In this document: positions 1 through 12,904 of the stretch, piece after piece
Layout of the letters: each line of letters starts with the position of its first letter
Position numbering within the stretch: position 1 is the stretch's first letter
Origin: an uncultured Gemmatimonadota bacterium
GTDB taxonomy: Bacteria > Gemmatimonadota > Gemmatimonadetes > Palauibacterales > KS3-K002
DNA length: 60,443 bases
Reading direction: 5' to 3'
Assembly (NCBI GenBank): GCA_964347815.1
Contig: CAYGAJ010000001.1
Location: 1 to 60,443 of the forward strand
Translations under genes and position numbers: made by a program
The notes under the pieces: generated by a model
What the model was told of the DNA's origin: nothing
Database searches by the model: none
What the model saw: the letters and a program-made list of their open reading frames with translations, nothing else

Positions 1-59
1 ACGAGACGTTCCGGCTCTACATCTCGCCGCTCGACCTCGAGCGCCACATGGAGCTTTAG
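1..59 (+). CDS. 3' end of an upstream CDS (partial, ...ETFRLYISPLDLERHMEL*), product unknown
   Basis: Open frame runs off the left edge and ends at TAG 57-59. That is only 6 nt before the ATG at 66, so it is probably co-transcribed with the two 2TM genes. Confidence 0.3.
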   Translation, partial: ETFRLYISPLDLERHMEL

Positions 60-65
60 GCGCCG

Positions 66-524
66 ATGGCGGCGCTCGAGACTAGCGCGGCGGAGCGCCA
101 CCCATCGCTGCGGGCGGAGATCGAGACGGCGGATCGCATCCTGGTGCCGGCGTTCGAGGATGCGGATCGGAAAGCGCTCGAGTACCAGCGCAAGTTTCGC
201 CGTGCCGAGCTGGCGGTGATCTACGGCAGCGTTCTCGCGGTCGCCTTGGGGCTGGCGGCGAGCGTGACGGGAGCGAACGCCTACAGCTTCGTCGAGCTGG
301 TCCTCACCGCCGGTCTCGGTTCCGTCGCCTTTGTCTCCAAGGGTCTCAAGTGGCAACGTCGCTGGCTACGCAGTCGCTGGCTGGCGGAGACGCTTCGCGG
401 CGAACGCCTGATGTTCATCGGCCAGTTGGGCGACTACGGCAATGCGGAAGACCCCGAGGTCGCGCTGCGGCGCCGTCTGGTCGATATCGAACGGGCGGCC
501 CGGGAGGGACAGAGCGATGGCTGA
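66..524 (+). CDS. SLATT/DUF4231-like two-transmembrane protein (152 aa)
   Basis: Soluble helical N-terminus (KALEYQRKFRR) followed by a hairpin of two hydrophobic helices (AELAVIYGSVLAVALGLAASVTG and FVELVLTAGLGSVAFVSKGL). Then a W/R-rich helix (WQRRWLRSRWLAETLRGE). Architecture recalled as typical of DUF4231/SLATT. Confidence 0.6.
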   Translation: MAALETSAAERHPSLRAEIETADRILVPAFEDADRKALEYQRKFRRAELAVIYGSVLAVALGLAASVTGANAYSFVELVLTAGLGSVAFVSKGLKWQRRWLRSRWLAETLRGERLMFIGQLGDYGNAEDPEVALRRRLVDIERAAREGQSDG

Positions 525-1011
525 GCGCGACCGCGACTTCCTGCGCTTCTACGAACAGGAGCGCGTCGAGGACCAGCTGAAGTACTATCGGCGCCAGGCC
601 GGCTGGCACGGCCGCCGTGACGACACGCTCCTCCTCATCAGCGGGATCCTGATGTTCGTCGCCGCTGTCGCCTCGGGCGTCTCGGCGTCGAACTGGGAGG
701 GGGTGGGGCCAGCGGTTCTCTGGAGCTCGGTGGCGGCGCTGGTGCCGGCGCTCGCCGCCGCCGTCGCCGCGACCCGGGCCCTGTACGAGCACGAGCGCAA
801 CCACCAGCGATTCGAGAACACGTTCCACGATCTCGAATATCTCAGGGCTTACAAGGCGCCGTCGGCGAAGCTGGCCGAGGCGGAGTACCGCACCGCGCTG
901 GAGGAGTACGTGGGCGAGGTCGAGGGCTTGCTCTCGCGCGAGCACCGGCAGTGGGTCGAGGTGATGACCCAGGTGCAGGCCGCCCAGGCGCCGGAGCCGC
1001 CCGGCGGCTAG
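517..1011 (+). CDS. Second SLATT/DUF4231-like two-transmembrane protein (164 aa from ATG 517)
   Basis: Internal ATG at 517 overlaps the upstream stop (ATGGCTGA). QLKYYRRQA helix, then two TM helices (TLLLISGILMFVAAVASGVSA and AVLWSSVAALVPALAAAVAAT), then a helical tail. The 442 start in the ORF track is rejected because its leader is Arg-rich. Confidence 0.6.
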   Translation: MAERDRDFLRFYEQERVEDQLKYYRRQAGWHGRRDDTLLLISGILMFVAAVASGVSASNWEGVGPAVLWSSVAALVPALAAAVAATRALYEHERNHQRFENTFHDLEYLRAYKAPSAKLAEAEYRTALEEYVGEVEGLLSREHRQWVEVMTQVQAAQAPEPPGG

Positions 1012-1023
1012 CCCGGGCGTGGC

Positions 1024-3243
1024 TCAGGACAAGAACCCGCCCAGCACGTCGCGCAGATTCGGGCCCGACCCCCGCAAGCTGTACGGCTGGACCCGCAGTT
1101 TGGCCAGGGCAGGGAACAGCCGGTCCACGGTGTCCTCCTGCCCGACGATCAACGTGTCACGACCCAGGCAGTGGGCGATCCCCAGCTCCAGCGCCACGTT
1201 CGCGTTGAAGCCCGTCAGGTCCACGACCACACGTGATGCCCGGCAAAGCTCGTCCCAGATCGAGCGGATGATCCGCGGATTCTTCACGGCGTCACCGCGG
1301 ACGTAATCGACGCCAGCCGCCTCACAGGCTTTGCGGGTGAGATCCATAACCTCGTCCGACCAGTCCATCCCGAATGGCATCACGTGAAAGCACCGGCGCG
1401 CGCCGGGCTCTGGGTAGCTTCCCGGCCAGGCGGGTCGCAGCGGCGCCGGTGCCTCGGGCCCGGAGAAGCCCAGCAGGTTGTCGATGAGATAGCGGACCTT
1501 GAGTGGATCGTCCGCCGCCTCACCGAGCAAGCCGATCGTGTGCTTGGCCTCCCAGCTCGCCTCGTCACCGCCCAGAACGCGCCGGGCATAGGCGATCGTC
1601 TCTGCGATCGACGAGTCGCCGCCGCCTCTCTGCTGCCCGTACAGCGCCTCGTCGAGCGCGTCGCTCAGACGCCGGACATCTTCACCGTCGCCGGCGAGGC
1701 GAACCGGCACGACATCGACGTCGAAGGGAAGGCGGCCCTGGCCAGGCGCGACGATCACGATGGAACGTCCAAGCGCGAGCCCGATACCAAGCTCGTAGCA
1801 TACGGCGGCTAATTCGGTCGCCTCGGCAGAAGTGAAATCGAAAACCGCGACGTTGCACCGGCGCAGTCCGTCCCACCGTTCCTGTGCGTAGTTCCGCTTC
1901 GTGCCGCCCGAAACCAGCTCGAGGCTACGGGCGCCGCACACCTCGGCCGCGAGCCGCTGCACGTCCGTCCCACCCGAGAAAAAGATCGCGTTGGCGTCTT
2001 GTGAGACCGGCGGCGCCGGCCAGATGGGATTGGCCAGGGTGAGGTGATGGCGCATGGCATAGTCGCGCGCGTCGAGGGCGAGCTTGCGAAGCGACTCGCG
2101 CTCGAGCGCGATGACCGCGTCGTCGTCGGCGCCGGCCTGGCGCAGGCTCGTTCCGGCTTGGGCCACGCGGACGAACAGGTTCTCCACGGTCTTGTGCTCG
2201 TCCTCCGCCTTGTGCGCGCGTCCCCCCTCGATGAATAGGAAGCGCTTGACGCCGGCCAAGAGCCGATCGACCCGCTCGGCCCGCGAGCCGCCCGGTGGCG
2301 CTTCACCCTCGTACGTCGGCCGGTCCACCGCGGTCGTCATGCGGCCCATCAGCTCCCGCACGCGCGCGACTCTGCTCATCATATCAGAGAGGTCGTCGGG
2401 TTTCTCCTTCATGACCTCTCCCAACTCCTCGAGGATCGGCTCCAGCGCCTCCTTGCGCTCCGGCGTGAACTCCCCGGCCCGGACCTTCTCGTTGAACAGC
2501 TTGAGCAACATCTCGTAGCCGGCCGTCAGCTCGTTCGATTCGGTCGGGGGAGCGGTGTCCTCGATCTCCATCGATTCCGGTCGCAGGATATCCGATTCGG
2601 CGGTCGTCTCTTCTTCGTCCGGCTCTGATATGCCCAGGCCCGTCGACCCTTCGAGCAGCTCGCGCACGGCCTCGCTGTCCCAATCGCCGGCGGTCACCGG
2701 CAGTGTTTTCGCGTAGCTCGTCAGGCCTCGAAAGGCGCGCTGGACGCTGGCCCGCTCCAGCGTCGCGTCGATGGCCGCGTCGAGCTGGCTGGCCTGGGGC
2801 TCCCCGATAAGTTGGCGGATGACGGCGTTTGCGGGGCCCAGGTCCAGCGGCAAGAGCGGGCGGCCCGTCCAGAGCCGGTAGGAATCCGAGATCGATTGCA
2901 GAAGCCGTTGCGCGAAATACGCATCGTCCATCAGGCCGATCAGCCCGAAGTGATCGAAGATGATATCGAGCGGCGAGACGAAGTACTGCTGGGCCGCCTC
3001 GAGAATCGGCATCGCGTAATGCGAGATACCGACCTGGTTGGCGGCGACGGCGCACGCGTCGAGCAGGTCGGGAACGTTCTCGATGTAGTCGCGGATAAAC
3101 CCGACGGTGCCGGCGATCTCCGATGGCGGCGGCCGATGCCCGTGTTGAGCGGCGGCCTGTCGGAGCATCTGCGCGGCGCTGCCCGAGAACTGTTCGTGCG
3201 CGATGGCCCGGGCGATCTGTTGACGGAGTACTTGCGTTTGCAT
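1024..3243 (-). CDS. Multidomain protein (739 aa): N-terminal DUF1232-like module, acidic helical linker, two tandem nucleoside-2-deoxyribosyltransferase/TIR-like domains
   Basis: ATG at 3243. The N-terminal ~170 aa align with the N-terminus of the neighbouring 3259-5235 product. YFVSPLDIIFDHFGLIGLMDDAYF resembles the DUF1232/YkvA signature. Two repeats are present: AIFFSGG...ELAAVCYELGIGLALGRSIVIV (aa ~418-520) and CFHVMPFG...FNANVALELGIAHCLGRDTLIV (aa ~617-725). Confidence 0.75.
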   Translation of the reverse strand: MQTQVLRQQIARAIAHEQFSGSAAQMLRQAAAQHGHRPPPSEIAGTVGFIRDYIENVPDLLDACAVAANQVGISHYAMPILEAAQQYFVSPLDIIFDHFGLIGLMDDAYFAQRLLQSISDSYRLWTGRPLLPLDLGPANAVIRQLIGEPQASQLDAAIDATLERASVQRAFRGLTSYAKTLPVTAGDWDSEAVRELLEGSTGLGISEPDEEETTAESDILRPESMEIEDTAPPTESNELTAGYEMLLKLFNEKVRAGEFTPERKEALEPILEELGEVMKEKPDDLSDMMSRVARVRELMGRMTTAVDRPTYEGEAPPGGSRAERVDRLLAGVKRFLFIEGGRAHKAEDEHKTVENLFVRVAQAGTSLRQAGADDDAVIALERESLRKLALDARDYAMRHHLTLANPIWPAPPVSQDANAIFFSGGTDVQRLAAEVCGARSLELVSGGTKRNYAQERWDGLRRCNVAVFDFTSAEATELAAVCYELGIGLALGRSIVIVAPGQGRLPFDVDVVPVRLAGDGEDVRRLSDALDEALYGQQRGGGDSSIAETIAYARRVLGGDEASWEAKHTIGLLGEAADDPLKVRYLIDNLLGFSGPEAPAPLRPAWPGSYPEPGARRCFHVMPFGMDWSDEVMDLTRKACEAAGVDYVRGDAVKNPRIIRSIWDELCRASRVVVDLTGFNANVALELGIAHCLGRDTLIVGQEDTVDRLFPALAKLRVQPYSLRGSGPNLRDVLGGFLS

Positions 3244-3258
3244 TGTGGGTTGCCGTCT

Positions 3259-5235
3259 CTAGGCTGGCGGTGCCGCCTCGATCAGCTCGAGCTCGGCTCC
3301 GCACGTGAGATGCCGCCTGCCGTTCCAGGTCTCGCCGTGTGTGGCGAATCGCTTGCCGCATTGAGGACAGCGGAGCCACCCATCGGGTCCGACCTCGACT
3401 TTGAGCCGCGGCATCAGATAAACGATCGTGTCGCTGAATTGCAGATCGGCGAGCTGCTCCGGTGGCGGCGGCGCCGGAGGCCCCTCGATGATCACCGGCA
3501 AGATCTCGGGTGGGTTTTCCTCATGGCCGTTCTTCCTCGTGACCGCATAGTCGATCTCGCGCCCAATCCACTCCGAATCACGTGCCGCGCTGGACCAGAA
3601 CAGAAAGAAGACGTCGGAGCGGTCGATGGCGCGATACAGCTCACGCTCCCAACGGTCACCGGGAGCCAGACTCAAGATGTCCTGGAAGAACTCGTATTTG
3701 AGTAGCTTCAACATCTGCACCCGCTTGAGGACCTCGGCTCGATCCTGCGATGCGTAAGAGACAAAGGCGTAGCGAAAGCGCTTTGCGGTTCCGGTTGGCG
3801 TAACCGATGAGTCCTCTGTGACCGCTGCGGGCTTCACCTCGATCTTGAAGTTGATCTTCCCGATGGGATCGCCGTCCTGCGAGATCAAGAGCTTGCCAAT
3901 CAGGGTCAGATTCGGTTCGGACGGTGCCCGGACCCCGAAACTCACCGACGCCGTCCGCCCCCGCCAGCGCAGGTCCTGGACGGTGTCATCGATCGTGGCC
4001 TCGGGAAGCTTCAGCTCGAAGCTGAGAAACGAGCCGCGGCGGATCTCGGTCCACAGCAGGGTGGTGCCGCGCCGACTCGCTTCGGCGTCGAATTCCGCGG
4101 CCATCTCGGCCGCCTCGGCGGCACCTTCGGGCAGGTGCGCGTAGGCCTGTATCAGAAATCGCTGGCTTGGACTTACCTGCGCCGGGGCGAACACGCTGAC
4201 GTCGACTTCGTCAGCCGGAGTGGATCCTCCGGCACCCGGGCCACCGCCGCTGTCTGAGTCGCCGGCGTCCAGCTCGCCGGCGGAGTGGAAAGCGTCGCCT
4301 GCATTCGACAGCGGGAAGAACAGAGCGCCAAGACAGCCGCTTCGGCTCGCGTGTGGCGGCGTCGCTTCCGGTTCTGTTGCGACGGGAGGAAGAGGCTCGC
4401 GTGAGCGCAGCAGGTCGCGCTCAGGCGGCGGCGCTTCCCGACGCAGTCGATCCAGCTCCAGCCGCCGCTGACGCTCGCGCTCGACGGATTCGTCGCTTGC
4501 CGGCGATGGCGCCGCGGCCGCCGGCGGTTCCGCAGCCTCGAGCGGGGGCGGCGCCGCCGAAGTCCGCTCGCCGCTGAGTGTCTCGAACAGGCGGACCGGC
4601 GCCAGACGCGCCTCGCGGTGGCCTCGGATATCGTCCACGCTCCAGACCGGGCCGGTGAGCGCGAGGAGCGCGGGTGGCGGGGCAATGTATTCCAGCTCGG
4701 CGTAGGCGGCGCATATCGTATCGCAGGCCTGCTGCAGCGCCGGCGCCTCCAGCGTGGTCTCGACCGCGGCTTCGATCGACGCCGCCAGCTCGGGTCCAAA
4801 AAGCTCTCGCGCGACAGCGTTCGCCGGGCCGAGGTCCAGCGAGATGAGTCGGCGACCGGTTCGCGCCGCGACGGCGTCGGATAGACGCTGCAGCAGACGA
4901 TAGGCAAAAAACGCCTCGTCGATCAGCTGAAGCAGCGGCTGCTCTTCGACCGCCGTGCCCGGTGGGGCGAAGTTCCGCTCGATCGTCGCCAGGATGGCCG
5001 CGACCTGATCCTCGATCCCGGCCGCTGCGGCCGCCCGCTGGCAGGAGTGCAGCAGAACCGGAATGTGCTGCACGTACGACCGGATGAAGGCAACCGTGCG
5101 CTGGATCTCGGCGTCGCTCAGCCCGAGACCTACGGCACGCGCTCTCTCGGACAAATGCGCGGCGGTCTCGCCCGTACGCTCGTCATGGGCGAGCCCCGCT
5201 TCGATCAGAGCCGCGGTTCTAGCGATCGCAGACAC
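3259..5235 (-). CDS. TIR-domain protein (658 aa): shared N-terminal module, Pro/Ala-rich linker, beta-rich domain, TIR domain, CxxC...C tail
   Basis: GTG start at 5235. TIR signature YAFVSYASQDRAEV...DVFFLFWSSAARDSEWIGREIDYA (aa ~486-605). C-terminal WLRCPQCGKRF...HLTCG looks like a Zn ribbon. It lies 15 nt upstream of the next gene and 30 nt downstream of the previous one. Confidence 0.8.
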   Translation of the reverse strand: MSAIARTAALIEAGLAHDERTGETAAHLSERARAVGLGLSDAEIQRTVAFIRSYVQHIPVLLHSCQRAAAAAGIEDQVAAILATIERNFAPPGTAVEEQPLLQLIDEAFFAYRLLQRLSDAVAARTGRRLISLDLGPANAVARELFGPELAASIEAAVETTLEAPALQQACDTICAAYAELEYIAPPPALLALTGPVWSVDDIRGHREARLAPVRLFETLSGERTSAAPPPLEAAEPPAAAAPSPASDESVERERQRRLELDRLRREAPPPERDLLRSREPLPPVATEPEATPPHASRSGCLGALFFPLSNAGDAFHSAGELDAGDSDSGGGPGAGGSTPADEVDVSVFAPAQVSPSQRFLIQAYAHLPEGAAEAAEMAAEFDAEASRRGTTLLWTEIRRGSFLSFELKLPEATIDDTVQDLRWRGRTASVSFGVRAPSEPNLTLIGKLLISQDGDPIGKINFKIEVKPAAVTEDSSVTPTGTAKRFRYAFVSYASQDRAEVLKRVQMLKLLKYEFFQDILSLAPGDRWERELYRAIDRSDVFFLFWSSAARDSEWIGREIDYAVTRKNGHEENPPEILPVIIEGPPAPPPPEQLADLQFSDTIVYLMPRLKVEVGPDGWLRCPQCGKRFATHGETWNGRRHLTCGAELELIEAAPPA

Positions 5236-5265
5236 GTCAGTGTTCCAGGCGATTCCGTGAGGGGC

Positions 5266-6660
5266 CTAGTCGGCTGCAGAACCGCGCAGATCGCGCTCGA
5301 TGTCGTCCGCCCAGTCCACGGTTTCACCTCGTTTCTGGCGGGCGTTGCGAATCAACTCCAGGTTACCGGCGGTCGATTTCATCTGCCAGCCGTGAGGCGA
5401 CTCCGCGAGTGCTTTGTCTGTCGCCTTTTCGGCGGCCTCACGGTCGTTCGCCAGGACCGCCAGTTCGAGAAGCGTCGCGTAATCCCAGTAGTCTGGTTCG
5501 CCGGTGGCCACGCGTCGCTCCGTGCTGTAAGCGACGACAGGGAGAATCTTTTCGCGCCGGGGGTCTGGCGGGTCTCGAATCTCCATCAGCGTGACCGCGT
5601 TGATGCCGGGATAGGCGTCGCGCCAATCCGCCTCGAAGCCGCGAACATAGGCGTCGATCGCCTTGTCCAGGAAGCCGCGGGCGAGACGCCCCTCGCCCGC
5701 CTCCAGCGCCGCCTTCCACCGGTCCTTGTAGACGCGACCGAGCAGACCGTAAGTTTCGCTGCTGGGCCCGCGCCGCTCGAGTAGCTTCAGCAGCACGCGC
5801 TCGGCTTCCTCGCCACGGCCGGCGCGATTGAGCGCGAAGGCCAGCTGCTCCTGAACCATCACGGTCTCCGCCAGCGGCGCGGACATCTCGTCGACGAGGG
5901 CGATCATCTCCTCCCAACCCTCGACGTCGCGATATGAGAGAAACAGATCGATCACGACGCCGGCCTCCGTGTCGCTGATCGTCCCCAGCGTCTTTTGGAC
6001 GGCCTGTAGCTCCTTGGGGCCCGACAGCTCCTTCCTCTTTTCCTCGTTGATCTCCTTTTTCTCCCGATCGAGCGTCTCCTTGTCTTTCTTCTTGGCCACG
6101 GCCAGCCGCTCCTTCGCTTCGCTCGAGTAGCGAACGCGATCGCGGAACACGTCGGTCCTGAGACGCGCGATGTCCGGCGGCTTCAGACCGTCAAGCAGCT
6201 GGAACAGCGGGCTGTCGGTTACCGCCTGTCGCGCATCACGCAGCTTTCCGGCCAAGGCCTTGCGAGTCTCGTCCACGTCGGCCGGCGTGCCGGTGGCGGT
6301 GAGCCGGTAGGGAAGGGCGCGCAGAGGCGCCACGTCGAACGGCAGCCGCGTGTTCTCCGAGAAGATGAGCACCGTGCTCCAGGGGCGGGCGGTGTGGCGA
6401 ACCCCCAGCTCGTAGAAGACGTTGGCGTTCGCCGTCGTCAAATCCGCCACCGCGTACTCGCACAGCAACAGCCGCTCGAACATCGCCTGATGGATGACGC
6501 CGCCGACAATCTCTTCGTCGGCGCGTACCGCCTCCAGATCGGCGTCCTCAATGGCCAGCCGGATCAAATCGCGATAAACGGCATCGAAGTCGATGAGCGA
6601 GCCGGCGGGATCAGGCTTCTTGCCGAACGGCATGAGGACGAAGCAGAGCGGGCGGGTCAC
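5266..6660 (-). CDS. Deoxyribosyltransferase/TIR-like N-terminal domain fused to a DUF4071 (TRAFs-binding-type) TPR-like domain (464 aa)
   Basis: GTG at 6660 lies 7 nt after GAGG and yields MTRPLCFVLMPFGKK...TTANANVFYELGVRHTARPWSTVLIF. A Lys/Glu-rich coil follows (KKKDKETLDREKKEINEEKRKE). The C-terminus YGLLGRVYKDRW...DAYPGINAVTL is recalled as DUF4071-like. The 742-aa ORF-track version is rejected because its 5' part is low-complexity and overlaps the TetR gene. Confidence 0.75.
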   Translation of the reverse strand: MTRPLCFVLMPFGKKPDPAGSLIDFDAVYRDLIRLAIEDADLEAVRADEEIVGGVIHQAMFERLLLCEYAVADLTTANANVFYELGVRHTARPWSTVLIFSENTRLPFDVAPLRALPYRLTATGTPADVDETRKALAGKLRDARQAVTDSPLFQLLDGLKPPDIARLRTDVFRDRVRYSSEAKERLAVAKKKDKETLDREKKEINEEKRKELSGPKELQAVQKTLGTISDTEAGVVIDLFLSYRDVEGWEEMIALVDEMSAPLAETVMVQEQLAFALNRAGRGEEAERVLLKLLERRGPSSETYGLLGRVYKDRWKAALEAGEGRLARGFLDKAIDAYVRGFEADWRDAYPGINAVTLMEIRDPPDPRREKILPVVAYSTERRVATGEPDYWDYATLLELAVLANDREAAEKATDKALAESPHGWQMKSTAGNLELIRNARQKRGETVDWADDIERDLRGSAAD

Positions 6661-6752
6661 GGGGTCACCTCGGCGCAAAGGTCGCTGCTGAGAAAGGCAC
6701 GAAGCCGTCGCGCGAAAGATAGGATAGCGCGGGTGGCGGCGGCAAAGGGACA

Positions 6753-6806
6753 GGGCCGGGCGGGTCGGGTAATTGAGAGGGAGGTTTGGGGAGTGGGAGG
6801 GGTGGG
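6753..6806 (+). other. Two adjacent G-quadruplex-type G-run motifs in the divergent intergenic region
   Basis: 6753-6769 reads GGGccGGGcGGGtcGGG. 6779-6806 reads GGGaggtttGGGGagtGGGaGGGGtGGG. Both were read directly from the + strand. Confidence 0.5.
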
Positions 6807-6818
6807 CGGAAGAGAGGA

Positions 6819-6846
6819 TTGACGGACAGTTTGAAGGGGGTATACT
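6819..6846 (+). promoter_or_regulatory. Sigma70-type promoter candidate for the TetR/efflux operon
   Basis: TTGACG (6819-6824), 16-nt spacer, TATACT (6841-6846). The annotated GTG start at 6853 is only 7 nt downstream, which implies a very short or absent leader. Confidence 0.4.
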
Positions 6847-6852
6847 AGGGGC

Positions 6853-7488
6853 GTGGGAATCAAACATACGTATGAAGAAACGCCCCCTACCGCGGCCGCT
6901 CTCACCGCCGCCGCACTCGAGCTTTTCGCCCGACACGGCTACGACGGCGCCTCCGTACGCGCCATCACCGCCCGCGCCGGCGCCAACCTGGGCGCCATCA
7001 CCTACCACTTCGGCTCCAAGCAGGCGCTCTACGAGGCCGTGTTCGCCCAGGCGGCCGGCCCGTCCAACCAGCGGCTGGCCGAGGCGGCGGCCCAACCGGG
7101 ACCGGCGCTCGCGCGGATCGAGGCCGTGGTGCGCGCCTTCTTCGGTTACCTGGAAGAGAACCCCGCCCTGCCGCAGCTGATGATGCAGCAGCTCGCCAGC
7201 TCGCGTCCGATGCCCGATTCCGCGCTCCGCACGATTCGAGGGAACCTCGAGATCTTGAGCTCGCTCATCCGCGAGGGTCAGGAGGAGGGGTCGATCCGAG
7301 CGGGTGACCCGCGGCTGATGGCGCTCAGCGTCGGAGCGCAGCCGATCTGGCTCACCATGGCGCGGCGAGCGCTGCACGCGGGCGCCGCGATCGACCAGAC
7401 GGATCCGGAGACGCGATCCCGTTTGGTGGAGAGCGTCGTGAGCTTCGTGCGGGCCGGTCTGGCGCGGCATGAGGAGCAACAGGAATGA
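6853..7488 (+). CDS. TetR/AcrR-family transcriptional regulator
   Basis: N-terminal HTH LELFARHGYDGASVRAITARAGANLGAITYHFGSKQALY. The stop overlaps the next start (ATGA). Confidence 0.9.
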   Translation: MGIKHTYEETPPTAAALTAAALELFARHGYDGASVRAITARAGANLGAITYHFGSKQALYEAVFAQAAGPSNQRLAEAAAQPGPALARIEAVVRAFFGYLEENPALPQLMMQQLASSRPMPDSALRTIRGNLEILSSLIREGQEEGSIRAGDPRLMALSVGAQPIWLTMARRALHAGAAIDQTDPETRSRLVESVVSFVRAGLARHEEQQE

Positions 7489-8867
7489 GATCACGAGTTC
7501 TTTTGACGAAGATCGTCAACGTCGGCGTGCTGGCCGCATTCGGCATGATGGGCGCGGCGCGATCGCTCGAGGCGCAAGATGACTTGGCAGGTCGCCGCCT
7601 TACCCTCGCCGAAGCCATCGCCCGGGCGCAGGAGACGTATCCCAGCCTTCTTTCGGCCCGGGCCGGTGAGGAGGCGGCGGCCGCCGCGGTGGGGGAGGCG
7701 ACGGCGGTCCGCTGGCCGAGCCTCAGCACGGGCGTATCGCTGACGAGATTCGAGGAGCCGATGCTCGTGGCGCCGTTGCACCGCTTCGACATCACTCAAC
7801 GTCCGGAGTTCGATGAGACGCTGATCCGCGGGGACGTGACGCTTGCCTGGACGCTGTTCGATGGCGGCGCGCGGGGCGCCCGAATCGGCGGTGCCCGGGC
7901 CGAGGCCGCCGGCTCGGTCGCGGGCCGGCGGAGCGCCGAGATGGATCTCATCGCTCGGGTCACCCGGGCGTACCTGGAGGTGCTCACGGCGCGCGGTGTT
8001 CTGGCGGCGCAGGATCGGCGCATCGTGGCGTTGGCAGCCGAGCGCCGGCGCGTCGAGGACCTTCTTGCCCAGGGGCGTGCTGCCCGGGTGGAGCTGTTGC
8101 GCGTAGACGCCGCGCTCGCGGTCGCCGAGGCGGAGCGGGTCGAGACCGGGGCGCGTCTGGATCTAGCGGAGCGCGATCTGGCGCGTCTGATCGGAGTGTC
8201 GCTCGAAGAAGCCCAGAGCTTCGCGCTGCTGCCCTTGCGCTTGGTGGACCCGGACGCGGAAACAGAGCGAGAAGCGCTGCTCGCCCGAGGCCGGACGGCC
8301 AGCCCCGAGCTGGAACGGGCGCGGCAGCTGGTGCTGGCCGCCGAGGCGGGGAGCCGTCTGGCCCGGGCCGGCTGGCTGCCGCGGTTGGATCTCGTCGGCT
8401 CCTATCTCGGGTTCGGCAGCACGGCGGGAGGTGGCGGTGCGATGGAGTGGCAAGCCGGGGTCAGCCTCTCGTATCCGCTGTTCACGGGCGGTGCGCGGCT
8501 CAGCGCCGTTGGCGCGGCGCGGGCTCGAGAGCGGCGGGCCGACGAAGAGTTACGGCTCGCGCAGCTGAGAGTCGAGGAGGCGGTCGACGTGGCGTTGAAC
8601 GCGGAGCGCGAAGCGCGCGCGCTGGTCGAGGCGGTGTCGCGGGCGGTCGAGCACCAGGCGGAGGTCGTGCGGATCGAGAACCTGTTGCTGGAAGCTGGGG
8701 CCGGGACGCAGACGGACTATCTCAGTTCGGAGGCGGAGCTATTGCGGGTGAGGTCGGCGCTGATCGAAGCACGGCACCGGCATATCGCCGCCCGGGTCGA
8801 GCTGGTCCGCGTCGTCGGTGTGCTCGATACGGCCTGGCTCACTGAGAACCTGGAGATCGCGCGATGA
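7485..8867 (+). CDS. TolC-family outer-membrane efflux protein
   Basis: Signal-like N-terminus and two long coiled-coil/beta repeats typical of outer-membrane factor proteins (LTLAEAIARAQETYPSLLSARA...). Translationally coupled on both sides. Confidence 0.85.
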   Translation: MRSRVLLTKIVNVGVLAAFGMMGAARSLEAQDDLAGRRLTLAEAIARAQETYPSLLSARAGEEAAAAAVGEATAVRWPSLSTGVSLTRFEEPMLVAPLHRFDITQRPEFDETLIRGDVTLAWTLFDGGARGARIGGARAEAAGSVAGRRSAEMDLIARVTRAYLEVLTARGVLAAQDRRIVALAAERRRVEDLLAQGRAARVELLRVDAALAVAEAERVETGARLDLAERDLARLIGVSLEEAQSFALLPLRLVDPDAETEREALLARGRTASPELERARQLVLAAEAGSRLARAGWLPRLDLVGSYLGFGSTAGGGGAMEWQAGVSLSYPLFTGGARLSAVGAARARERRADEELRLAQLRVEEAVDVALNAEREARALVEAVSRAVEHQAEVVRIENLLLEAGAGTQTDYLSSEAELLRVRSALIEARHRHIAARVELVRVVGVLDTAWLTENLEIAR

Positions 8868-9868
8868 AGAACATCCGACGCGTCGCCATCATCATCGTCG
8901 TCGTCGTTGCCGTCGCCGGGACGGCGATCACGCTCGCGCTGCTGCGCTCCGACGGCGCGACGGCGATCGAAGCTTCAGGCACCGTCGAGGCGACCGAAGC
9001 CGACCTCGGGTTTCAGGTGCCGGGTCGCATAGAGAAGATCGCCGTTCGCGAAGGCGACAGGGTGGAGAGCGGGGCCGAGCTGGCCTGGCTCGATCGCGCC
9101 GAGCTGCTCGCCCGGCGCCGGGCCGCCCAGGCGCAGGTGGACGCCGCTCGTGCTTTGTTGGCTGAGCTAGAACGGGGCTTCCGGCCGGAGGAAGTGGCTC
9201 AGGGACGCGCAGCGCTCCGTGCCGCCGAGCAACGTCTGAGCGACGCGCGGCGCGACGTCGAGCGGACGAGGAGCCTGTTCGATGGGGGTGCGGTGAGCCG
9301 CGAGCTTCTGGACAAGCACGAGACGGCGCTCGAGGTCGCCATGGCCGAGTACCAGCGTGCCGAGGAGGCGTTGCAGATCCTGCGGACCGGACCGCGGCAG
9401 GAGCGGATCGCGGCTCAACGCGCAGCCCTGGCCCAGGCCGAGGCGACGGAGGCGCAGATCGAGGCCGCCCTCACCTACGCGGTCGTCCGGGCGCCCTTCG
9501 TCGGCGTCGTCAGCCTGCGCCACCGCGAGCCCGGCGAGAGCGTTCAGGCGGGCGCGCCGGTCGTTACGGTGATGAACCCGGACGATCGCTGGATCCGCAT
9601 CTACGTCCGCGAGGATGAGGTGGGGAGGCTGACGCTCGGTCAGAGGGCGGAGATCACGGCGGACGCCGACCCCGAGCGCGTCTATGAAGGTCAGGTCGTC
9701 TTTATCGCCAGCGAGGCGGAGTTCACGCCGCGCAACGTCCAGACCACGGAGGAGCGGGTGAAGCTGGTGTACCGGGTGAAGGTGCAGATCACGGGCGACC
9801 CCGGTTTCGACTTGAAGCCGGGTCTGGCGGCCGACGTGCGGCTGAGCGTCGGGTCGCGCGACTCTTAG
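8864..9868 (+). CDS. HlyD-family membrane fusion protein (YbhG-like)
   Basis: N-terminal TM helix, lipoyl-like hairpin, coiled coil, and C-terminal TPRNVQTTEERVKLVYRVKV motif typical of YbhG/HlyD_D23 proteins. Confidence 0.9.
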   Translation: MKNIRRVAIIIVVVVAVAGTAITLALLRSDGATAIEASGTVEATEADLGFQVPGRIEKIAVREGDRVESGAELAWLDRAELLARRRAAQAQVDAARALLAELERGFRPEEVAQGRAALRAAEQRLSDARRDVERTRSLFDGGAVSRELLDKHETALEVAMAEYQRAEEALQILRTGPRQERIAAQRAALAQAEATEAQIEAALTYAVVRAPFVGVVSLRHREPGESVQAGAPVVTVMNPDDRWIRIYVREDEVGRLTLGQRAEITADADPERVYEGQVVFIASEAEFTPRNVQTTEERVKLVYRVKVQITGDPGFDLKPGLAADVRLSVGSRDS

Positions 9869-9886
9869 CGGTCCGGGGCCGCCGTC

Positions 9887-10849
9887 ATGACCGACGACAC
9901 CGTCAGGCTGGACGGGCTGACGCGCCGGTTCGACGATCGGGTCGCCGTCGATGGGCTGACATTATCGGTCGGCCGCGGCGAGCTGTTCGGCATCGTCGGT
10001 CCGGACGGTGCCGGCAAGACGACGACGCTCCGCATGCTCGGAGCCGTGCTTCGCCCGACGTCGGGCGATGCGGTCGTCGCGGGTGTGAGCGTCACACGCG
10101 ACCCGGAGGGCGTGAAACGCCACATCGCCTACATGTCGCAGCGCTTTGGCTTGTACACCGACCTGACGGTCCGCGAGAACATCGACTTCTACGCGGACCT
10201 TTATCGGGTCCCGCGGGGACAGAGGCCAGCCCGGCTCGAGCGGCTCTATTCGTTCTCGGGGCTCGGGCCGTTCGAAGGCCGGCTGGCGGGCCAGCTCTCG
10301 GGCGGGATGAAACAGAAGCTGTCTTTGTGTTGCGCGCTCATACACGAGCCCCGGGTGTTGCTGCTGGACGAGCCGACGTTCGGAGTCGACCCGATATCGC
10401 GGCGCGACCTCTGGCTGATCGTGCACGAGATGGTGGCCCGCGGTGTGACCGCGATCGTTTCGACGGCTTATCTGGACGAAGCGGAGCGCTGCGACCGGGT
10501 CGCCATGCTGCACCGGGGTCGCGAGGTGGTCGTCGACCGGCCCAGCGCGCTGCGGCAACGGCTGCAGGGGCAGGTTTTGGCGCTTCGCGCCGACCAACCA
10601 CGCAAGGCGCGAGACGTGCTGCGCGCGGAGGCAGCGGTGCGACAGGCGGTGCTGTTCGGCGAGTGGCTGCATGTCACGCTTGGGAAAGCGGGGGTGGGCG
10701 AAGAAGCGAACGCCCTGGAGAGTACTGCCTGGTCCTCGGCGCGGCAGCACCTGCGGGAAGCCGGTATCGAGTTGCTGGACCAGCGTGTCGTCGAGGCGTC
10801 TCTGGAAGACGTGTTCATCGATCTCGTCATCGATCAGGAGACCCGGTGA
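9887..10849 (+). CDS. ABC transporter ATP-binding protein (first half of a YbhF-like pair)
   Basis: Walker A GPDGAGKTT, signature LSGGMKQKL, Walker B LLLLDEPT. Confidence 0.9.
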   Translation: MTDDTVRLDGLTRRFDDRVAVDGLTLSVGRGELFGIVGPDGAGKTTTLRMLGAVLRPTSGDAVVAGVSVTRDPEGVKRHIAYMSQRFGLYTDLTVRENIDFYADLYRVPRGQRPARLERLYSFSGLGPFEGRLAGQLSGGMKQKLSLCCALIHEPRVLLLDEPTFGVDPISRRDLWLIVHEMVARGVTAIVSTAYLDEAERCDRVAMLHRGREVVVDRPSALRQRLQGQVLALRADQPRKARDVLRAEAAVRQAVLFGEWLHVTLGKAGVGEEANALESTAWSSARQHLREAGIELLDQRVVEASLEDVFIDLVIDQETR

Positions 10850-11787
10850 TGGGCGCGGCCGTGGAGGTCAGCTCGCTCACACGCAAGTTCGGTGCGTTCA
10901 CGGCGGTGGATCAGGTGAGCTTCGAGGTGGCCGAGGGCGAGATCTTCGGTTTTCTGGGCCCTAACGGGGCGGGGAAGACCACGACGATCAAAATGCTCAA
11001 CGGGCTGCTGCGGCCGACCTCCGGCGCGGCGCGCGTGGCGGGCTATGACGTGGTGACCGAGGTGGAGCGGGTGAAGTCGCGCATCGGCTACATGTCACAG
11101 CTCTTTTCGCTCTACCCTGACCTCACGGTGCTGGAGAACATCCAGCTGTTCGCGGGCCTCTACGGAGTCGGCGGCACGCGGCTGGCCCAACGCCGCGACT
11201 TCGTGCTGGAGATGGCCGGGTTGGCGGATCGGCAGGGGCGGCTGACCGGCGAGCTGCCGCTGGGCTTCAAGCAGCGGTTGGCGCTGGGGTGCGCGGTGCT
11301 ACACGAGCCGCCGATCCTGTTTCTCGATGAGCCGACGTCGGGTGTCGATCCGATCGCGCGGCGCAGTTTCTGGGATCTGATCTACGGGTTCGCTGCGGCC
11401 AGGACGACGGTTTTCGTCAGCACGCATTACATGGAAGAGGCGGAGTACTGCGGCCGGCTGGCGGTGATGAACCGGGGCCGGCTCGTGGCGCTCGATCGGC
11501 CGTCGGCGCTGAAGGCGGCGATCCGCGAGCCGATCCTCGAGGTGCTGGCCGACGACGTGCCGCGGGCGGTCGAGGTGGTGAGGGGTGCGCCGGGCGTTCT
11601 CGAGGTGACGATGTTCGGTCGGGCGATGCACGTGATGGTCGAAGACGTCGCGGCCGCTCAGCGCGACGTTCCGAAGCGGCTCCAGGGCGCGGGCCACACG
11701 GTCGAGTCTCTTCACCCCATCGCGCCCTCGCTCGAGGATGTGTTCGTCGCCCTGGTCCACCGTTCGGGAGGGGCGGCGGCGGAATGA
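10849..11787 (+). CDS. ABC transporter ATP-binding protein (second half of a YbhF-like pair)
   Basis: ATG at 10849 overlaps the upstream TGA (TGATG). Walker A GPNGAGKTT and Walker B ILFLDEPT. The 10327 start in the ORF track is rejected because its leader is Arg-rich. Confidence 0.9.
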   Translation: MGAAVEVSSLTRKFGAFTAVDQVSFEVAEGEIFGFLGPNGAGKTTTIKMLNGLLRPTSGAARVAGYDVVTEVERVKSRIGYMSQLFSLYPDLTVLENIQLFAGLYGVGGTRLAQRRDFVLEMAGLADRQGRLTGELPLGFKQRLALGCAVLHEPPILFLDEPTSGVDPIARRSFWDLIYGFAAARTTVFVSTHYMEEAEYCGRLAVMNRGRLVALDRPSALKAAIREPILEVLADDVPRAVEVVRGAPGVLEVTMFGRAMHVMVEDVAAAQRDVPKRLQGAGHTVESLHPIAPSLEDVFVALVHRSGGAAAE

Positions 11788-12899
11788 ACCTGGCGCGATT
11801 CTGGGCGATGAGCCGCAAAGAGGCGGTTCAGCTTCGCCGTGACCCCCGCAGCTTGACCTTGGCGTTCCTCTTGCCCCTGGCGCTCCTGCTGTTCTTTGGC
11901 TACGCGATCAGCTTCGACATCAAGAACATCGAGATGGCCGTTCTGGATCAAAGCGGCAGCGAGGAGAGCCGCGCGCTCGTCGATGCCTTCCTCAGTTCGG
12001 GCTATTTCGACCTGCGCGCTCACCTCTCGCGCTACGGCGACATCGAGAACCTGCTCGATGCCGGCAAGGTGAAGCTGGTGCTGGTGATCCCGCCGGATTT
12101 CGCCGCCGACTTGGCGGCGATGCGGCCGGCGCCGGTGCAGGTCTTGCTCGACGGGTCCGACGCGAACACAGCGACCATCGCGCAGAACTACGCCGAAGCC
12201 ATCGTCGCCCGCTTCTCGGCGGAGGCGGTCGTGCCGGGCCGCGACTTTCGGCTTCCGGTCGAGGCGGAGACGCGTATCTGGTTCAACGAGACCCTCGAGA
12301 GCCGGAACATGATCGTCCCCGGCCTGGTGGCGGTGATCATGTCGATCATCGCGGCCATGCTGACCGCGCTGACCATCGCCCGGGAGTGGGAGCGCGGCAC
12401 GATGGAGCAGCTGGCCGCGACCCCGGTGCATCGGCTCGAGGTCGTGCTGGGCAAGCTGTTTCCTTATGTCGTGATCGGCCTGTTCGACGTGGCGCTCGCC
12501 CTCGCTGCCGGCTTCTTCATCTTCGGCGTCCCTTTTCGCGGCAACCTGTTGCTGCTGGCGGGCCTCACATTTCTGTTTCTGCTGGGTGCGCTCAGCCTGG
12601 GCATGTTCATCTCGGCCGCAATCAAGTCGCAGGTTCTGGCCACCCAGGTCGCCATCCTGGCCACTTACCTGCCAGCCCTGCTGTTGTCGGATTTCATCTT
12701 CTCGATCGATACGATGCCCACGCCGTTGAAGGCGATCACCTACGCCGTGCCGGCGCGCTACTACATCACCGTGACTCGTGGCATCATTCTCAAGGGCGTC
12801 GGCCCGGCCGTGCTTTGGGTCGAGGGGCTGGCGATGATCATCTTCGCGGTGACCGGCCTGGCGCTGGCGATCCGGGCGTTCAGGAAGGAGCTGGGTTAG
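11784..12899 (+). CDS. ABC-2 type permease (YbhS/YbhR-like)
   Basis: N-terminal RKEAVQLRRDPRSL motif, large periplasmic loop and multiple C-terminal TM helices. ATGA overlap with the ATPase gene. Confidence 0.9.
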   Translation: MNLARFWAMSRKEAVQLRRDPRSLTLAFLLPLALLLFFGYAISFDIKNIEMAVLDQSGSEESRALVDAFLSSGYFDLRAHLSRYGDIENLLDAGKVKLVLVIPPDFAADLAAMRPAPVQVLLDGSDANTATIAQNYAEAIVARFSAEAVVPGRDFRLPVEAETRIWFNETLESRNMIVPGLVAVIMSIIAAMLTALTIAREWERGTMEQLAATPVHRLEVVLGKLFPYVVIGLFDVALALAAGFFIFGVPFRGNLLLLAGLTFLFLLGALSLGMFISAAIKSQVLATQVAILATYLPALLLSDFIFSIDTMPTPLKAITYAVPARYYITVTRGIILKGVGPAVLWVEGLAMIIFAVTGLALAIRAFRKELG

Positions 12900-12904
12900 C
12901 GACC

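Follow-up and report, generated by a model that had tools for sequence, protein, structure and literature searches.

The five genes at the start of the window (the whole stretch of 60,443 nucleotides analysed, from an uncultured Gemmatimonadota bacterium), here called A to E, appear to form a chromosomal Thoeris-like anti-phage system that would act through an NAD+-derived nucleotide signal and bring together the genes of Thoeris type VII and type VIII. We put the probability of this reading at about 55%. The domain identities, the conservation of catalytic positions and the linkage of the genes across genomes were observed directly, and they supported the earlier view of a conflict-type locus working with a nucleotide signal. 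We counted in favor of the Thoeris-like reading the tight spacing of the TIR, DRHyd + TPR-S and SLATT genes within 6.6 kb, and against it the position of the SLATT pair outside the TIR operon, on which the pair converges from behind glnA.

Gene layout and domain content

The positions of the genes and domains are given in Table 1; the gene coordinates bore out the five genes and the spacing claimed in the earlier note. The reading frames of A and B share an 8-nt overlap (ATGGCTGA), through which B is translationally coupled to A. The stops of the convergent genes B (1009-1011) and C (1024-1026) are 12 nt apart, and E, D and C are separated by 30 nt (E/D) and 15 nt (D/C). The locus had been described as cut by the window edge, which is true of glnA only, as all five genes are complete. 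We identified the upstream gene as glnA because of synteny, with Gln-synt Pfam matches at the corresponding place in L001, L007 and L094, and because its C-terminal peptide ETFRLYISPLDLERHMEL, followed by the stop, matches the end of glnA exactly in L094 and almost exactly in L001. On the other side, a TetR gene (6853-7488, + strand) is divergent from E. The sole sigma-70-like site in the intergenic region (6819-6846, + strand) points at TetR, and a consensus scan of this region found no promoter for E. The GC content of the locus is that of its flanks. Outside the locus, the contig is ordinary chromosome in which we found neither mobile-element marks nor other defence genes, and for the locus PADLOC (2023 models) returned isolated domain matches only. 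We counted both results against the Thoeris-like reading.

Table 1. Features of the locus, in window coordinates
Feature	Residues	Position	Strand	Remarks
glnA 3' end		1..59	+	stop 57-59; context only
Gene A	152 aa	66-524	+	starts 6 nt past glnA stop
Gene B	164 aa	517-1011	+	stop 1009-1011
Gene C	739 aa	1024-3243	-	
C N-terminal module	aa 1-180	2704..3243	-	helical; DUF1232 motif SPLDIIFDHFGLIGLMDDAYF
C DRHyd domain 1	aa 402-535	1639..2040	-	FFSGG first strand; YELG motif, Glu484
C DRHyd domain 2	aa 600-739	1024..1446	-	FHVMPFG first strand; DLTGFNANVALELG, Glu686
Gene D	658 aa	3259-5235	-	
D N-terminal module	aa 1-177	4705..5235	-	paralogous to that of C
D beta-rich domain	aa 341-480	3796..4215	-	from conservation and a low-confidence model
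D TIR domain	aa 486-605	3421..3780	-	catalytic-position Glu560 in SEWIGREIDYA
D putative zinc-ribbon tail	aa 619-651	3283..3381	-	CPQC...H..C; weak Pfam matches only (Zn_ribbon_LysW 0.034, Zn_ribbon_recom 0.088)
Gene E	464 aa	5266-6660	-	GTG start, AGGTGA upstream
E DRHyd domain	aa 1-140	6241-6660	-	Glu84 in NANVFYELG
E TPR-S / MAP3K_TRAF_bd sensor region	aa ~81-446		-	Pfam
E/TetR divergent intergenic region		6661..6852		likely E-D-C operon promoter region, from layout only

Nearly all earlier domain assignments were confirmed by Pfam, NCBIfam, BLASTP and Foldseek, among them the SLATT identity of the two 2TM genes. A matched DUF4231 (3.4e-9) and SLATT_3 (6.2e-7), both above the Pfam cut-offs, with NCBIfam SLATT matches under the family cut-offs, and B matched SLATT_1 in Pfam (1.3e-14) and, over the cut-off, in NCBIfam (1.8e-20). 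Each protein has two hydrophobic TM segments (aa 49-67 and 72-90 in A, aa 37-55 and 66-84 in B). BLASTP of A against B found no similarity, and therefore they represent two different SLATT families. A is predicted to be a membrane effector subunit.

The partner described earlier as a DUF4071-type TPR was recovered in E as MAP3K_TRAF_bd (PF13281, ex-DUF4071; 2.3e-52), together with TPR-S (1.3e-28), and the TPR region matched the ASK1 structures 5ULM and 8QGY at 2e-10. The family of E is very large and strongly conserved, with at least 7990 members across phyla (55-67% identity), and the catalytic-position Glu84 is kept among homologues. C is a soluble protein in which two DNPH1/NDT-like domains, here named DRHyd, accompany the N-terminal module and a helical region. 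In its model (m55052295e5d4, pLDDT ~90 over aa 320-739), the modules matched DNPH1/Rcl and nucleoside 2'-deoxyribosyltransferase structures in Foldseek with probability 1.0 and TM 0.6-0.7. DRHyd domains 1 and 2 aligned with the N-terminus of E at 6e-7 and 1e-11, respectively; aa 447-501 gave a weak Pfam match to Nuc_deoxyrib_tr (24.6 bits, below the 28.8-bit cut-off), and the PADLOC TIR-effector model PDLC00733 matched domain 2 at 7e-7. The DRHyd-module profile matched Rcl/DNPH1 at 1e-4, the YELG glutamate falling on the YELG of the enzyme; this residue serves as the nucleophile of DNPH1. An alignment of 61 C-core sequences, C among them, has E at the Glu484 position in 59 and D in two, and Glu686 is kept in all. 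The alignments with E, the Foldseek results and the Rcl/DNPH1 profile match indicated, therefore, that the three non-TIR modules belong to a sister superfamily of TIR and not to TIR proper. Of the three TIR-superfamily proteins proposed in the earlier note, D (TIR_2) stood, whereas the modules of C and E are DRHyd, with the DNPH1/NDT fold. Its multi-TIR sensor/signal module was too strong a description, as D is the sole TIR protein and E is most simply read as a ThsI-type effector, not as a source of the signal.

D is composed of the N-terminal module, a Pro/Ala/Glu-rich linker, the beta-rich domain, the TIR domain (Pfam TIR_2, 1e-18, aa 491-602) and a Cys/His tail. W556 and E560 are invariant in eight homologues, and in the examined part of Table S1 Glu560 aligned with the W/K-E-I/L glutamate of type VII and VIII ThsB TIRs. 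With the ThsB TIRs validated for types VII and VIII, similarity in that part was marginal (BLAST E 0.004-0.13), and no D-like sequence was found there; D could therefore be an NAD+-depleting effector and not a signal generator, which weighs against the Thoeris-like reading. Strands were predicted at aa 344-467 with low confidence, and the AF2 model was poor (pLDDT 43). In P0142-P0144, Ser/Thr kinases are joined to the half of D containing the beta-rich and TIR domains (46-52% identity over 41% of D), which is also present in L082, adjoining an E homologue; the two domains travel as one cassette. The full-length family is rare, with five members, all at least 76% identical to D, two of them on Gemmatimonadota-type loci with unchanged gene order (L094 and L095).

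The presence of a paralogous N-terminal module in two of the proteins, noticed earlier, was verified by BLASTP of C against D (40% identity over 161 aa, E 4e-28; a further comparison gave 39% over the aligned module), and a DNA-level repeat (2804-2868 and 4796-4860) reflects this paralogy. In C, the module matched DUF1232 (Pfam 7.8e-7, aa 87-109). A profile of the module (~175 aa) recovered 566 representative proteins, mostly standalone and of ~210 aa. Elsewhere it is fused to TIR (P0209, P0227, P0204), to the C core (P0184) and also to DRHyd and hydrolase domains, and its gene sometimes adjoins the C core. The module is undescribed.

Gene linkage across genomes and alternative readings

L094 and L095 have all five genes in the same arrangement: on checking synteny, as the earlier note had proposed, we found the set kept within a narrow Gemmatimonadota clade, and only there. 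Most related loci that still hold E and/or the SLATT pair are without D, which we counted against the Thoeris-like reading: D is absent and C kept in L005 and L006, and both D and E are absent and C kept in L001 and L007. Among genome loci of E homologues, 32 of 80 had at least one TIR ORF within 8 kb, and small TIRs directly beside E homologues (L046, L048, L058, L068, L023) matched the validated Yersinia type VIII TIR domain at 2e-17. Support for the claimed functional link between the SLATT pair and the minus-strand genes came from four actinobacterial loci (L055, L057, L064, L079), in which a DUF4231/SLATT_3 + SLATT_1 pair immediately precedes an E homologue in one operon; in L028, a D-type TIR and a SLATT pair adjoin an E homologue. 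Within 8 kb of the SLATT-SLATT-E operons of L057 and L064 there is no TIR, thus TIR is not obligatory for these modules, at least locally; this, too, we counted against the Thoeris-like reading.

The full-length C family is rare (16 clusters), and the C core is present in at least 79 metagenomic loci, often adjoining E-like or TIR genes. The locus census never placed it beside SLATT outside Gemmatimonadota, a further point against the Thoeris-like reading, as are the solitary C cores described below. Neighbour clustering put an E-like gene next to the C core in 14 metagenome loci (11 of 78 by a stricter HMM census), and E and C overlap or abut in L006 and L005. This direct adjacency is one reason to ask whether C, and not D, could be the primary signal generator of a Thoeris-type system independent of TIR. 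The tandem DNPH1-like domains would then turn NAD+ into a messenger for TPR-S effectors (E, and TPR-S-patatin in relatives) and the SLATT pair, with D as a second, optional generator bearing the same N-terminal regulatory module. C is constant in the Gemmatimonadota locus while D is confined to the subclade of the window, and L006 (E, C, a TPR-S-patatin protein and a SLATT operon) and L005 (E and C) have no TIR. Both glutamate positions of C are strongly conserved, a module common to C and the TIR protein would be expected of paralogous sensor-generators, and ADP-ribosyl cyclases, the canonical cADPR makers, have been assigned to the DRHyd superfamily (PMC9503650). However, the domains of C are closest to the effector-type domain of E and to DNPH1/NDT, which are N-glycoside hydrolases, and not to ADP-ribosyl cyclases. 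C is also often without a TPR-S or SLATT partner (L004, L092; the C core is solitary in 15 of 27 loci with at least 6 kb of flank), and three of the four long-flank loci with the C core and E-like genes hold TIR genes too. We consider C an unlikely primary generator.

The solitary C cores are also what would be expected of a small defence hot-spot of independent modules, and relatives differ by whole modules (C alone, C + SLATT, E + C, or E + C + TPR-S-patatin). In that case D, as a sensor-TIR NADase, and C, as a sensor-nucleotidase/NADase, would each work on its own, much as the single-gene DUF4062 system Swarozyc does. E would belong with the SLATT pair to a module apart from them, whose signal comes from elsewhere in the genome. 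The kinase fusions of the beta-rich + TIR cassette in single proteins and the SLATT-SLATT-E operons without C or D fit such an arrangement, for which an autonomous TIR/NDT-like NADase with a catalytic Glu, acting in defence, offers a precedent (10.64898/2026.05.01.722283). Independence of the modules seems doubtful to us: the short E-D-C gaps and the E/C overlap in L006 argue for co-transcription, the module common to C and D, fused or adjacent to TIR and C-core genes elsewhere, argues for coupling, and E-like genes are far commoner beside the C core than unrelated neighbours would be.

A role outside immunity, as a housekeeping NAD+/nucleotide-signalling or stress module of this Gemmatimonadota lineage, is very improbable. 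Such a module might be connected with nitrogen status, given its place behind glnA, or with the TetR-controlled efflux operon next to it. A role of this kind would agree with the stable place of C, flanked by glnA and the TetR-OEP-ABC operon across 47-82% protein divergence, with the start of the SLATT pair so close to glnA, and with the unremarkable GC content and the lack of mobile-element marks noted above. All recognisable domains (TIR, SLATT, TPR-S, and patatin in relatives) are, however, characteristic of conflict systems, the set of genes at the site changes fast among close relatives, and homologous architectures are phage-protective in experiments (10.64898/2025.12.03.692087).

Proposed mechanism

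In the Thoeris-like system that we favor, phage defence and a response to canonical cADPR would follow by analogy with published homologous architectures (TIR + SLATT and TIR + CMP-hydrolase-TPR). D would be ThsB-like, and we infer that upon infection its TIR domain (Glu560) may turn NAD+ into a cyclic-ADP-ribose-type messenger, with sensing or regulation assumed for its N-terminal module and beta-rich domain. The messenger would be read by two kinds of effectors, E and A/B. In E, of ThsI type, TPR-S would bind the signal, and the DNPH1-like domain (Glu84) would then cleave the N-glycosidic bond of a nucleotide or NAD+. The ThsH-like A/B heteromeric 2TM pair would oligomerise and permeabilise the membrane. 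Abortive infection or growth arrest would be the outcome of the whole system. C could be an additional nucleotide- or NAD+-cleaving component, with its two DNPH1-like domains forming an intramolecular pseudo-dimer, and may be tied to D via the common N-terminal module, either by the same input or by module-module interaction.

Comparison with Thoeris systems

The earlier note held that the locus matches no named system. This no longer applies, as a December 2025 bioRxiv preprint (10.64898/2025.12.03.692087) describes TIR with the SLATT effector ThsH as Thoeris type VII and TIR with the 'CMP hydrolase-TPR' effector ThsI as type VIII. According to the same work, both types are validated in phage defence and triggered by canonical cADPR, rare operons contain both ThsH- and ThsI-type effectors, and the earlier prediction that this TPR acts in TIR signalling is credited to Aravind and colleagues. 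The DRHyd + TPR-S architecture of E is that of ThsI, and the A/B pair (SLATT_3 + SLATT_1) resembles ThsH. The really unnamed part is gene C with the N-terminal module common to C and D; the locus has the gene content of both Thoeris types, and differs from them by the extra protein C.

Gene layout and chromosomal setting

The ORF map and the raw sequence bore out the gene layout described in the earlier note, which had proposed an unnamed conflict locus of several TIR-superfamily proteins and SLATT proteins at positions 1-6660. Genes C, D and E encode a protein with two DRHyd domains (the DNPH1/nucleoside 2'-deoxyribosyltransferase, NDT, fold; 739 aa), a TIR protein (658 aa) and a DRHyd plus TPR-S protein (464 aa). 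They lie on the minus strand with inter-gene gaps of 15 nt (C/D) and 30 nt (D/E), D following E in the direction of transcription. A and B are two SLATT genes at a syntenic position, but on the strand opposite to the TIR operon and in a separate transcription unit; 12 nt separate the stop of B from that of C.

Genes of the locus and the adjoining exporter operon (window coordinates)
Feature	Position	Strand	Basis and remarks
Gene A	66-524	+	ORF map; starts 6 nt past the stop of the truncated upstream gene
Gene B	517-1011	+	ORF map; 8-nt overlap with A
Gene C	1024-3243	-	ORF map
Gene D	3259-5235	-	ORF map
Gene E	5266-6660	-	ORF map; GTG start
Exporter operon	6853-14020	+	TetR, outer-membrane factor, HlyD-like adaptor, two ABC ATPases, two ABC2 permeases

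The last 18 residues encoded by the truncated gene upstream of A are identical to the glnA C-terminus of related contigs. The distance from the glnA stop to the SLATT pair is 6 nt both in the window (57-68) and in the related locus L094 (8561-8568), and 254 nt in L001, which suggests read-through transcription from glnA into the SLATT pair in the window's subclade. On the other side, past E, a divergent intergenic region of 192 nt is followed by the TetR gene leading the OEP-HlyD-ABC-ABC2 exporter operon. The GC content is even over the locus and its flanks, the remaining contig is ordinary chromosome, and scans around the locus for Rfam families, tRNAs, repeats and promoters/terminators gave no sign of a mobile element or regulatory RNA. 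Gene C adjoins the exporter operon, at either end, in eleven inspected Gemmatimonadota-type loci with C (window counted); no part of this operon is present on the short contigs of L005 and L095. Elsewhere in the window, a 977-aa UvrD-type helicase (30826-33759, minus strand) has an RNase_T/DnaQ-like exonuclease domain as an insertion that separates its N-terminal from its C-terminal helicase part.

Domain assignments of the five proteins

In Pfam, A scored 37.5 bits for DUF4231 (cut-off 24.7; 3e-9) and 30.2 bits for SLATT_3 (cut-off 26.3; 6e-7), and B scored 54.8 bits for SLATT_1 (cut-off 26.3; 1e-14). With scores exceeding the curated cut-offs and two TM segments in each protein, the SLATT 2TM identity of A and B was upheld. 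C, D and E are soluble.

Protein D matched TIR_2 with 68.4 bits (cut-off 28; 1e-18). Its W556 and E560 are invariant in eight homologues, the glutamate following the W-x3 motif, and Glu560 aligns with the catalytic glutamate of the TIR proteins (ThsB) of two recently described Thoeris types, VII (TIR plus the SLATT effector ThsH) and VIII (TIR plus a 'CMP hydrolase and TPR' effector, ThsI) (Yirmiya et al., bioRxiv 10.64898/2025.12.03.692087, December 2025). Similarity of the D TIR to the type VII/VIII TIR domains of Table S1 was marginal in BLASTP (E 0.004-0.13), the domain fell outside the cADPR-producing ThsB clade, and motif searches found no D-like TIR among the Table S1 entries listed. 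Five full-length relatives of D were found. The AF2 model of D had a pLDDT of 43, too poor for a fold search of the beta-rich domain. Three proteins of ~620-1016 aa from other metagenomes (P0142-P0144) combine the beta-rich and TIR cassette of D with Ser/Thr protein kinase domains.

The three remaining modules, two in C and one at the N-terminus of E, had also been counted to the TIR superfamily in the earlier note. The first 130 residues of E align to both C-terminal modules of C (1e-11 and 6e-7). For C, an AlphaFold model based on 15 homologues reached a pLDDT of ~90 for aa 320-739 and below 50 for the N-terminal module, and in a Foldseek search with this model the alpha/beta modules matched structures of DNPH1/Rcl and nucleoside 2'-deoxyribosyltransferases (probability 1.0, TM 0.6-0.7). 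A profile built from E-family N-terminal domains and C domain 2 found Rcl/DNPH1 at 1e-4, with the glutamate aligned on the YELG of Rcl, and PycTIR just marginally (0.038). In DNPH1 this YELG carries the nucleophile Glu of the enzyme, and the window's domains thus have both the fold and a glutamate at the nucleophile position of the DRHyd superfamily. Because of these matches, only D retains the status of a true TIR protein, whereas the two modules of C and that of E fall into the sister DRHyd (NDT/DNPH1) fold and were ruled out as true TIR domains. They are members of the wider fold superfamily outside the family PF05014 (Nuc_deoxyrib_tr) proper: C reached 24.6 bits, under the cut-off of 28.8, and E did not match this Pfam family. 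The NCBIfam scan returned no family for C or E.

The TPR region of E matched MAP3K_TRAF_bd (PF13281, formerly DUF4071; 2e-52) and TPR-S (1e-28) in Pfam, and is homologous at 2e-10 to the central regulatory region of ASK1 (PDB 5ULM and 8QGY).

The N-terminal module of ~175 aa is common to C and D (40% identity, E 4e-28), and in C it contains a DUF1232 motif (8e-7 in Pfam). Its profile recovered 566 representative proteins (clusters) among 1.84 billion. Almost all of them stand alone, with a length of 205-215 aa and the conserved tail PDPIWGNASIDDIVNARMGAMGIV; one such gene that was looked up lies on a short contig beside proB/proA. The module is also fused to the C core (P0184), to TIR domains (P0209, P0227), to beta-rich and TIR domains in a D-like protein of a different lineage (P0204) and to an alpha/beta-hydrolase (P0243). 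Such a distribution is what one would expect for an adaptor domain, or for a common sensor or regulator. No connection between DUF1232 and defence was found in the literature searched.

Neighbourhoods of the E and C families and variation of the site

The E family is very large: at least 7990 proteins, from Acidobacteriota, Nitrospirota, Proteobacteria, Actinomycetota and others, were found with 55-67% identity. Its N-terminal DRHyd domain (PLCFVLMPFG...GGIIHKPMFERLILCEYAVADLTTANANVFYELG) shows an unusual degree of conservation between phyla, the protein as a whole being 55-67% identical, and this is unexpected for a defence effector. We called ORFs in 80 genome loci of E homologues and searched them with iterated HMMs (TIR, SLATT, TPR-S, DRHyd, N-terminal module). 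Of the 80 loci, 32 have one or more TIR ORFs within 8 kb. The supplements of the preprint list TIR domains only, without ThsI or ThsH sequences; whether E is homologous to ThsI was hence judged indirectly, from the TIRs that adjoin E relatives. In five loci (L046, L048, L058, L068 and L023) small ThsB-type TIRs stand beside or just upstream of E, with matches of up to 2e-17 to the validated Yersinia type VIII TIR domain (Table S1), and the E relatives directly beside such Yersinia-type small TIRs are 55-60% identical to E.

SLATT genes occurred in 11/80 loci. In four actinobacterial loci (L055, L057, L064 from Blastococcus deserti, and L079) a DUF4231/SLATT_3 and SLATT_1 pair immediately precedes E within one operon; the link of E with this pair is conserved across phyla. 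By architecture as well as context, E is therefore regarded as a ThsI-type protein. A second TPR-S protein, usually a patatin fusion, was found in ~27 of the 80 loci. The commonest E-family neighbour is a protein of ~870 aa in which a TPR-S region at the N-terminus is joined to a patatin phospholipase (e.g. L006:12261-14894); it is not in the window and looks like another TPR-S effector.

Searches with C gave 16 full-length relatives among 5.8 billion proteins, and the two with a source name, as well as those of the inspected contigs with an organism title, were Gemmatimonadota MAGs. A metagenome scan with the C alignment extended this to at least 79 loci. What recurs is a core (aa ~240-739) made of a helical bundle and the two DRHyd domains, at 32-45% identity and with varied N-termini. 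Among 61 aligned core sequences (C and 60 others) Glu686 is conserved in all, the Glu484 position is Glu in 59 and Asp in 2, and the motifs around both residues are essentially invariant.

In the neighbour analysis of the C-core loci, 14 loci have an E-like gene next to the core, in most cases immediately behind it. Other recurrent neighbours are a standalone N-terminal-module protein of ~208 aa (12 loci), TIR or DUF4062-NTPase proteins (nine loci) and two unannotated families, a TM protein of ~117 aa (11 loci; e.g. L131:5814-6176) and a Cys-rich protein of ~380 aa (11 loci; e.g. L127:7360-8502). The Cys-rich family has repeated CxxC...CxxC units and is encoded upstream of the C core on the same strand. 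In this census no SLATT gene was found next to the C core outside Gemmatimonadota, and 15 of the 27 C-core loci with at least 6 kb of flank lacked both a TIR and an E-like gene.

Between glnA and the TetR-ABC operon, relatives differ by the presence or absence of whole modules. L094 and L095 have all five genes of the window at ~83% nucleotide identity. L005 has E and C, and no D; L006 adds to E and C the TPR-S-patatin gene and a SLATT operon of four genes (for SLATT_3, SLATT_1, a lipoprotein and a helical protein of 87 aa). In L001 (complete genome CP070722.1) and L007, C is joined by this four-gene operon, while D and E are both absent. A SLATT remnant accompanies C in L002, and C stands alone in L004 and L092. 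C is the constant element of the site, since it is kept in all variants, and D is limited to the window's subclade. As a set, the five genes which had been joined into one locus in the earlier note are not broadly syntenic, and this in part counts against that note by one of its own criteria; the pairwise links (E-SLATT, E-TIR, E-C and C-module), however, are kept much more widely.

In the relatives (L001:12341-13381, L006:14930-15970, L007:8302-9340), two extra genes stand behind the SLATT_3-SLATT_1 pair within its operon. The first encodes a helical lipoprotein of ~252-253 aa with a signal peptide and Cys, and the second the 87-aa helical protein, whose sole match was weak (EAD2, 0.007). Family searches with both gave no clear family, and neither has a counterpart in the window or L094.

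Such exchange of whole modules may also be read as a hot-spot of independent modules. Swarozyc, a single-gene defence formed by a DUF4062 TIR/NDT-like NADase (bioRxiv 10.64898/2026.05.01.722283), offers a precedent for this reading, which we consider rather unlikely.

Proposed pathway and comparison with known systems

The best-supported reading is a Thoeris-like pathway, to which we assign a probability of roughly 0.55. Upon infection the TIR domain of D would make an NAD+-derived messenger. E would sense this messenger through its TPR-S region, which would switch on its DNPH1-like hydrolase, and the SLATT pair A/B would sense it as well and breach the membrane. C would be a further NAD+/nucleotide-cleaving enzyme, coupled to D via the common N-terminal module. 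The weak points of this reading are that D is optional in relatives, that its TIR, of another clade, is just marginally similar to the ThsB TIRs, and that the SLATT pair is a separate transcription unit behind glnA.

Alternatively, C and not D could be the signal generator of a Thoeris without a TIR. In favour of this, C persists at sites that have TPR-S and SLATT genes but no TIR, and ADP-ribosyl cyclases have been placed in the DRHyd fold (PMC9503650); on balance we consider it rather unlikely. A broader proposal, which we think less likely than not, is that tandem-DRHyd proteins of the C type and the DUF1232 module of ~175-210 aa form an undescribed and widespread NAD+/nucleotide branch of immune signalling. 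C would then make or amplify a messenger for TPR-S and SLATT effectors where no TIR is present, and the module would be a new adaptor or sensor coupling TIR, DRHyd and hydrolase proteins.

If the Thoeris-like pathway holds, cADPR-type Thoeris would be extended into Gemmatimonadota, and Thoeris would gain a large multidomain TIR sensor and a heteromeric SLATT pair. Gene C and the module it has in common with the TIR protein are the more useful lead: ThsI-like and TIR genes repeatedly stand next to C, both C and the module are widespread and strongly conserved, and neither the C core nor the module was found described in the accessible literature. The role of C, as signal generator, second effector or autonomous NADase, bears on whether DNPH1-fold enzymes can replace TIR domains in bacterial immune signalling, and work on C would also reveal the function of the DUF1232-type module.

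Scans of Pfam, PADLOC and NCBIfam detected no SIR2, SLOG or Macro match of the kind that marks Thoeris types I/II. With respect to CBASS and Pycsar, no cyclase or nucleotidyltransferase match was found in the five proteins or the flanking genes (glnA and the TetR-OEP-ABC operon). PADLOC (2023) and NCBIfam gave isolated domain matches only and no system-level name.

DNPH1/Rcl and the NDTs have in common with both C domains and the E N-terminus the fold and the YELG motif. The position of Asp69 of DNPH1 is, however, not conserved in the window's domains, and Pfam Nuc_deoxyrib_tr stays under its cut-off. The known DNPH1/NDT enzymes are homodimers, and C instead has two such domains fused in tandem. 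The context of the locus is also one of conflict and not of nucleotide salvage; a non-immune physiological role of the locus seems to us highly improbable. Swarozyc combines a TIR/NDT-like domain with a catalytic Glu and an auxiliary sensing domain, depletes NAD+ autonomously, and could serve as a model for C acting alone; C differs in having no DUF4062 match, two DRHyd domains and another N-terminal region. In one locus (L088) a DUF4062 gene adjoins a divergent C homologue.

The predicted systems of the TPR-S/ASK-signalosome type resemble the window in the homology of the E TPR region to the central regulatory region of animal ASK1, of which it is a bacterial counterpart. Burroughs & Aravind reportedly predicted in 2020 that the TPR-S scaffold senses NAD+-derived signals from TIR or related domains.

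The closest known systems are Thoeris types VII and VIII. Both protect against phage; upon infection their TIR makes canonical cADPR, added cADPR is toxic to cells with either system, and Aravind and colleagues are credited with the earlier prediction that this TPR acts in TIR signalling (10.64898/2025.12.03.692087). Type VIII is reported to be especially abundant in Pseudomonadota, and rare operons contain both ThsH and ThsI (Fig. 5I of 10.64898/2025.12.03.692087). The content of the window (TIR, DRHyd-TPR-S and SLATT) is that of a type VII+VIII hybrid, and the statement of the earlier note that the locus matches no named system therefore fails.

As in type VIII, the window has a TIR gene in an operon directly beside a gene for a protein with an N-terminal NDT/CMP-hydrolase-like domain and TPR, exactly the architecture of E. 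Unlike type VIII, its TIR belongs to another clade (TIR_2) and lies inside a 658-aa multidomain protein, C and the SLATT pair are additional components, and the host is a Gemmatimonadota bacterium. As in type VII and the VII+VIII hybrids, genes for putative SLATT membrane effectors lie near a TIR gene, and SLATT and ThsI-type effectors meet at one locus. The window differs from type VII in its two different SLATT proteins (DUF4231/SLATT_3 and SLATT_1), encoded by an overlapping pair that sits on the opposite strand directly behind glnA and converges on the TIR operon; its relatives add the genes for the ~252-aa lipoprotein and the 87-aa helical protein after this pair. The framework of TIR, ThsI-type effector and SLATT effector is a known one, and the multidomain TIR_2 sensor, the heteromeric SLATT pair, the extra tandem-DRHyd protein and the common N-terminal module appear to be what is new in this locus.
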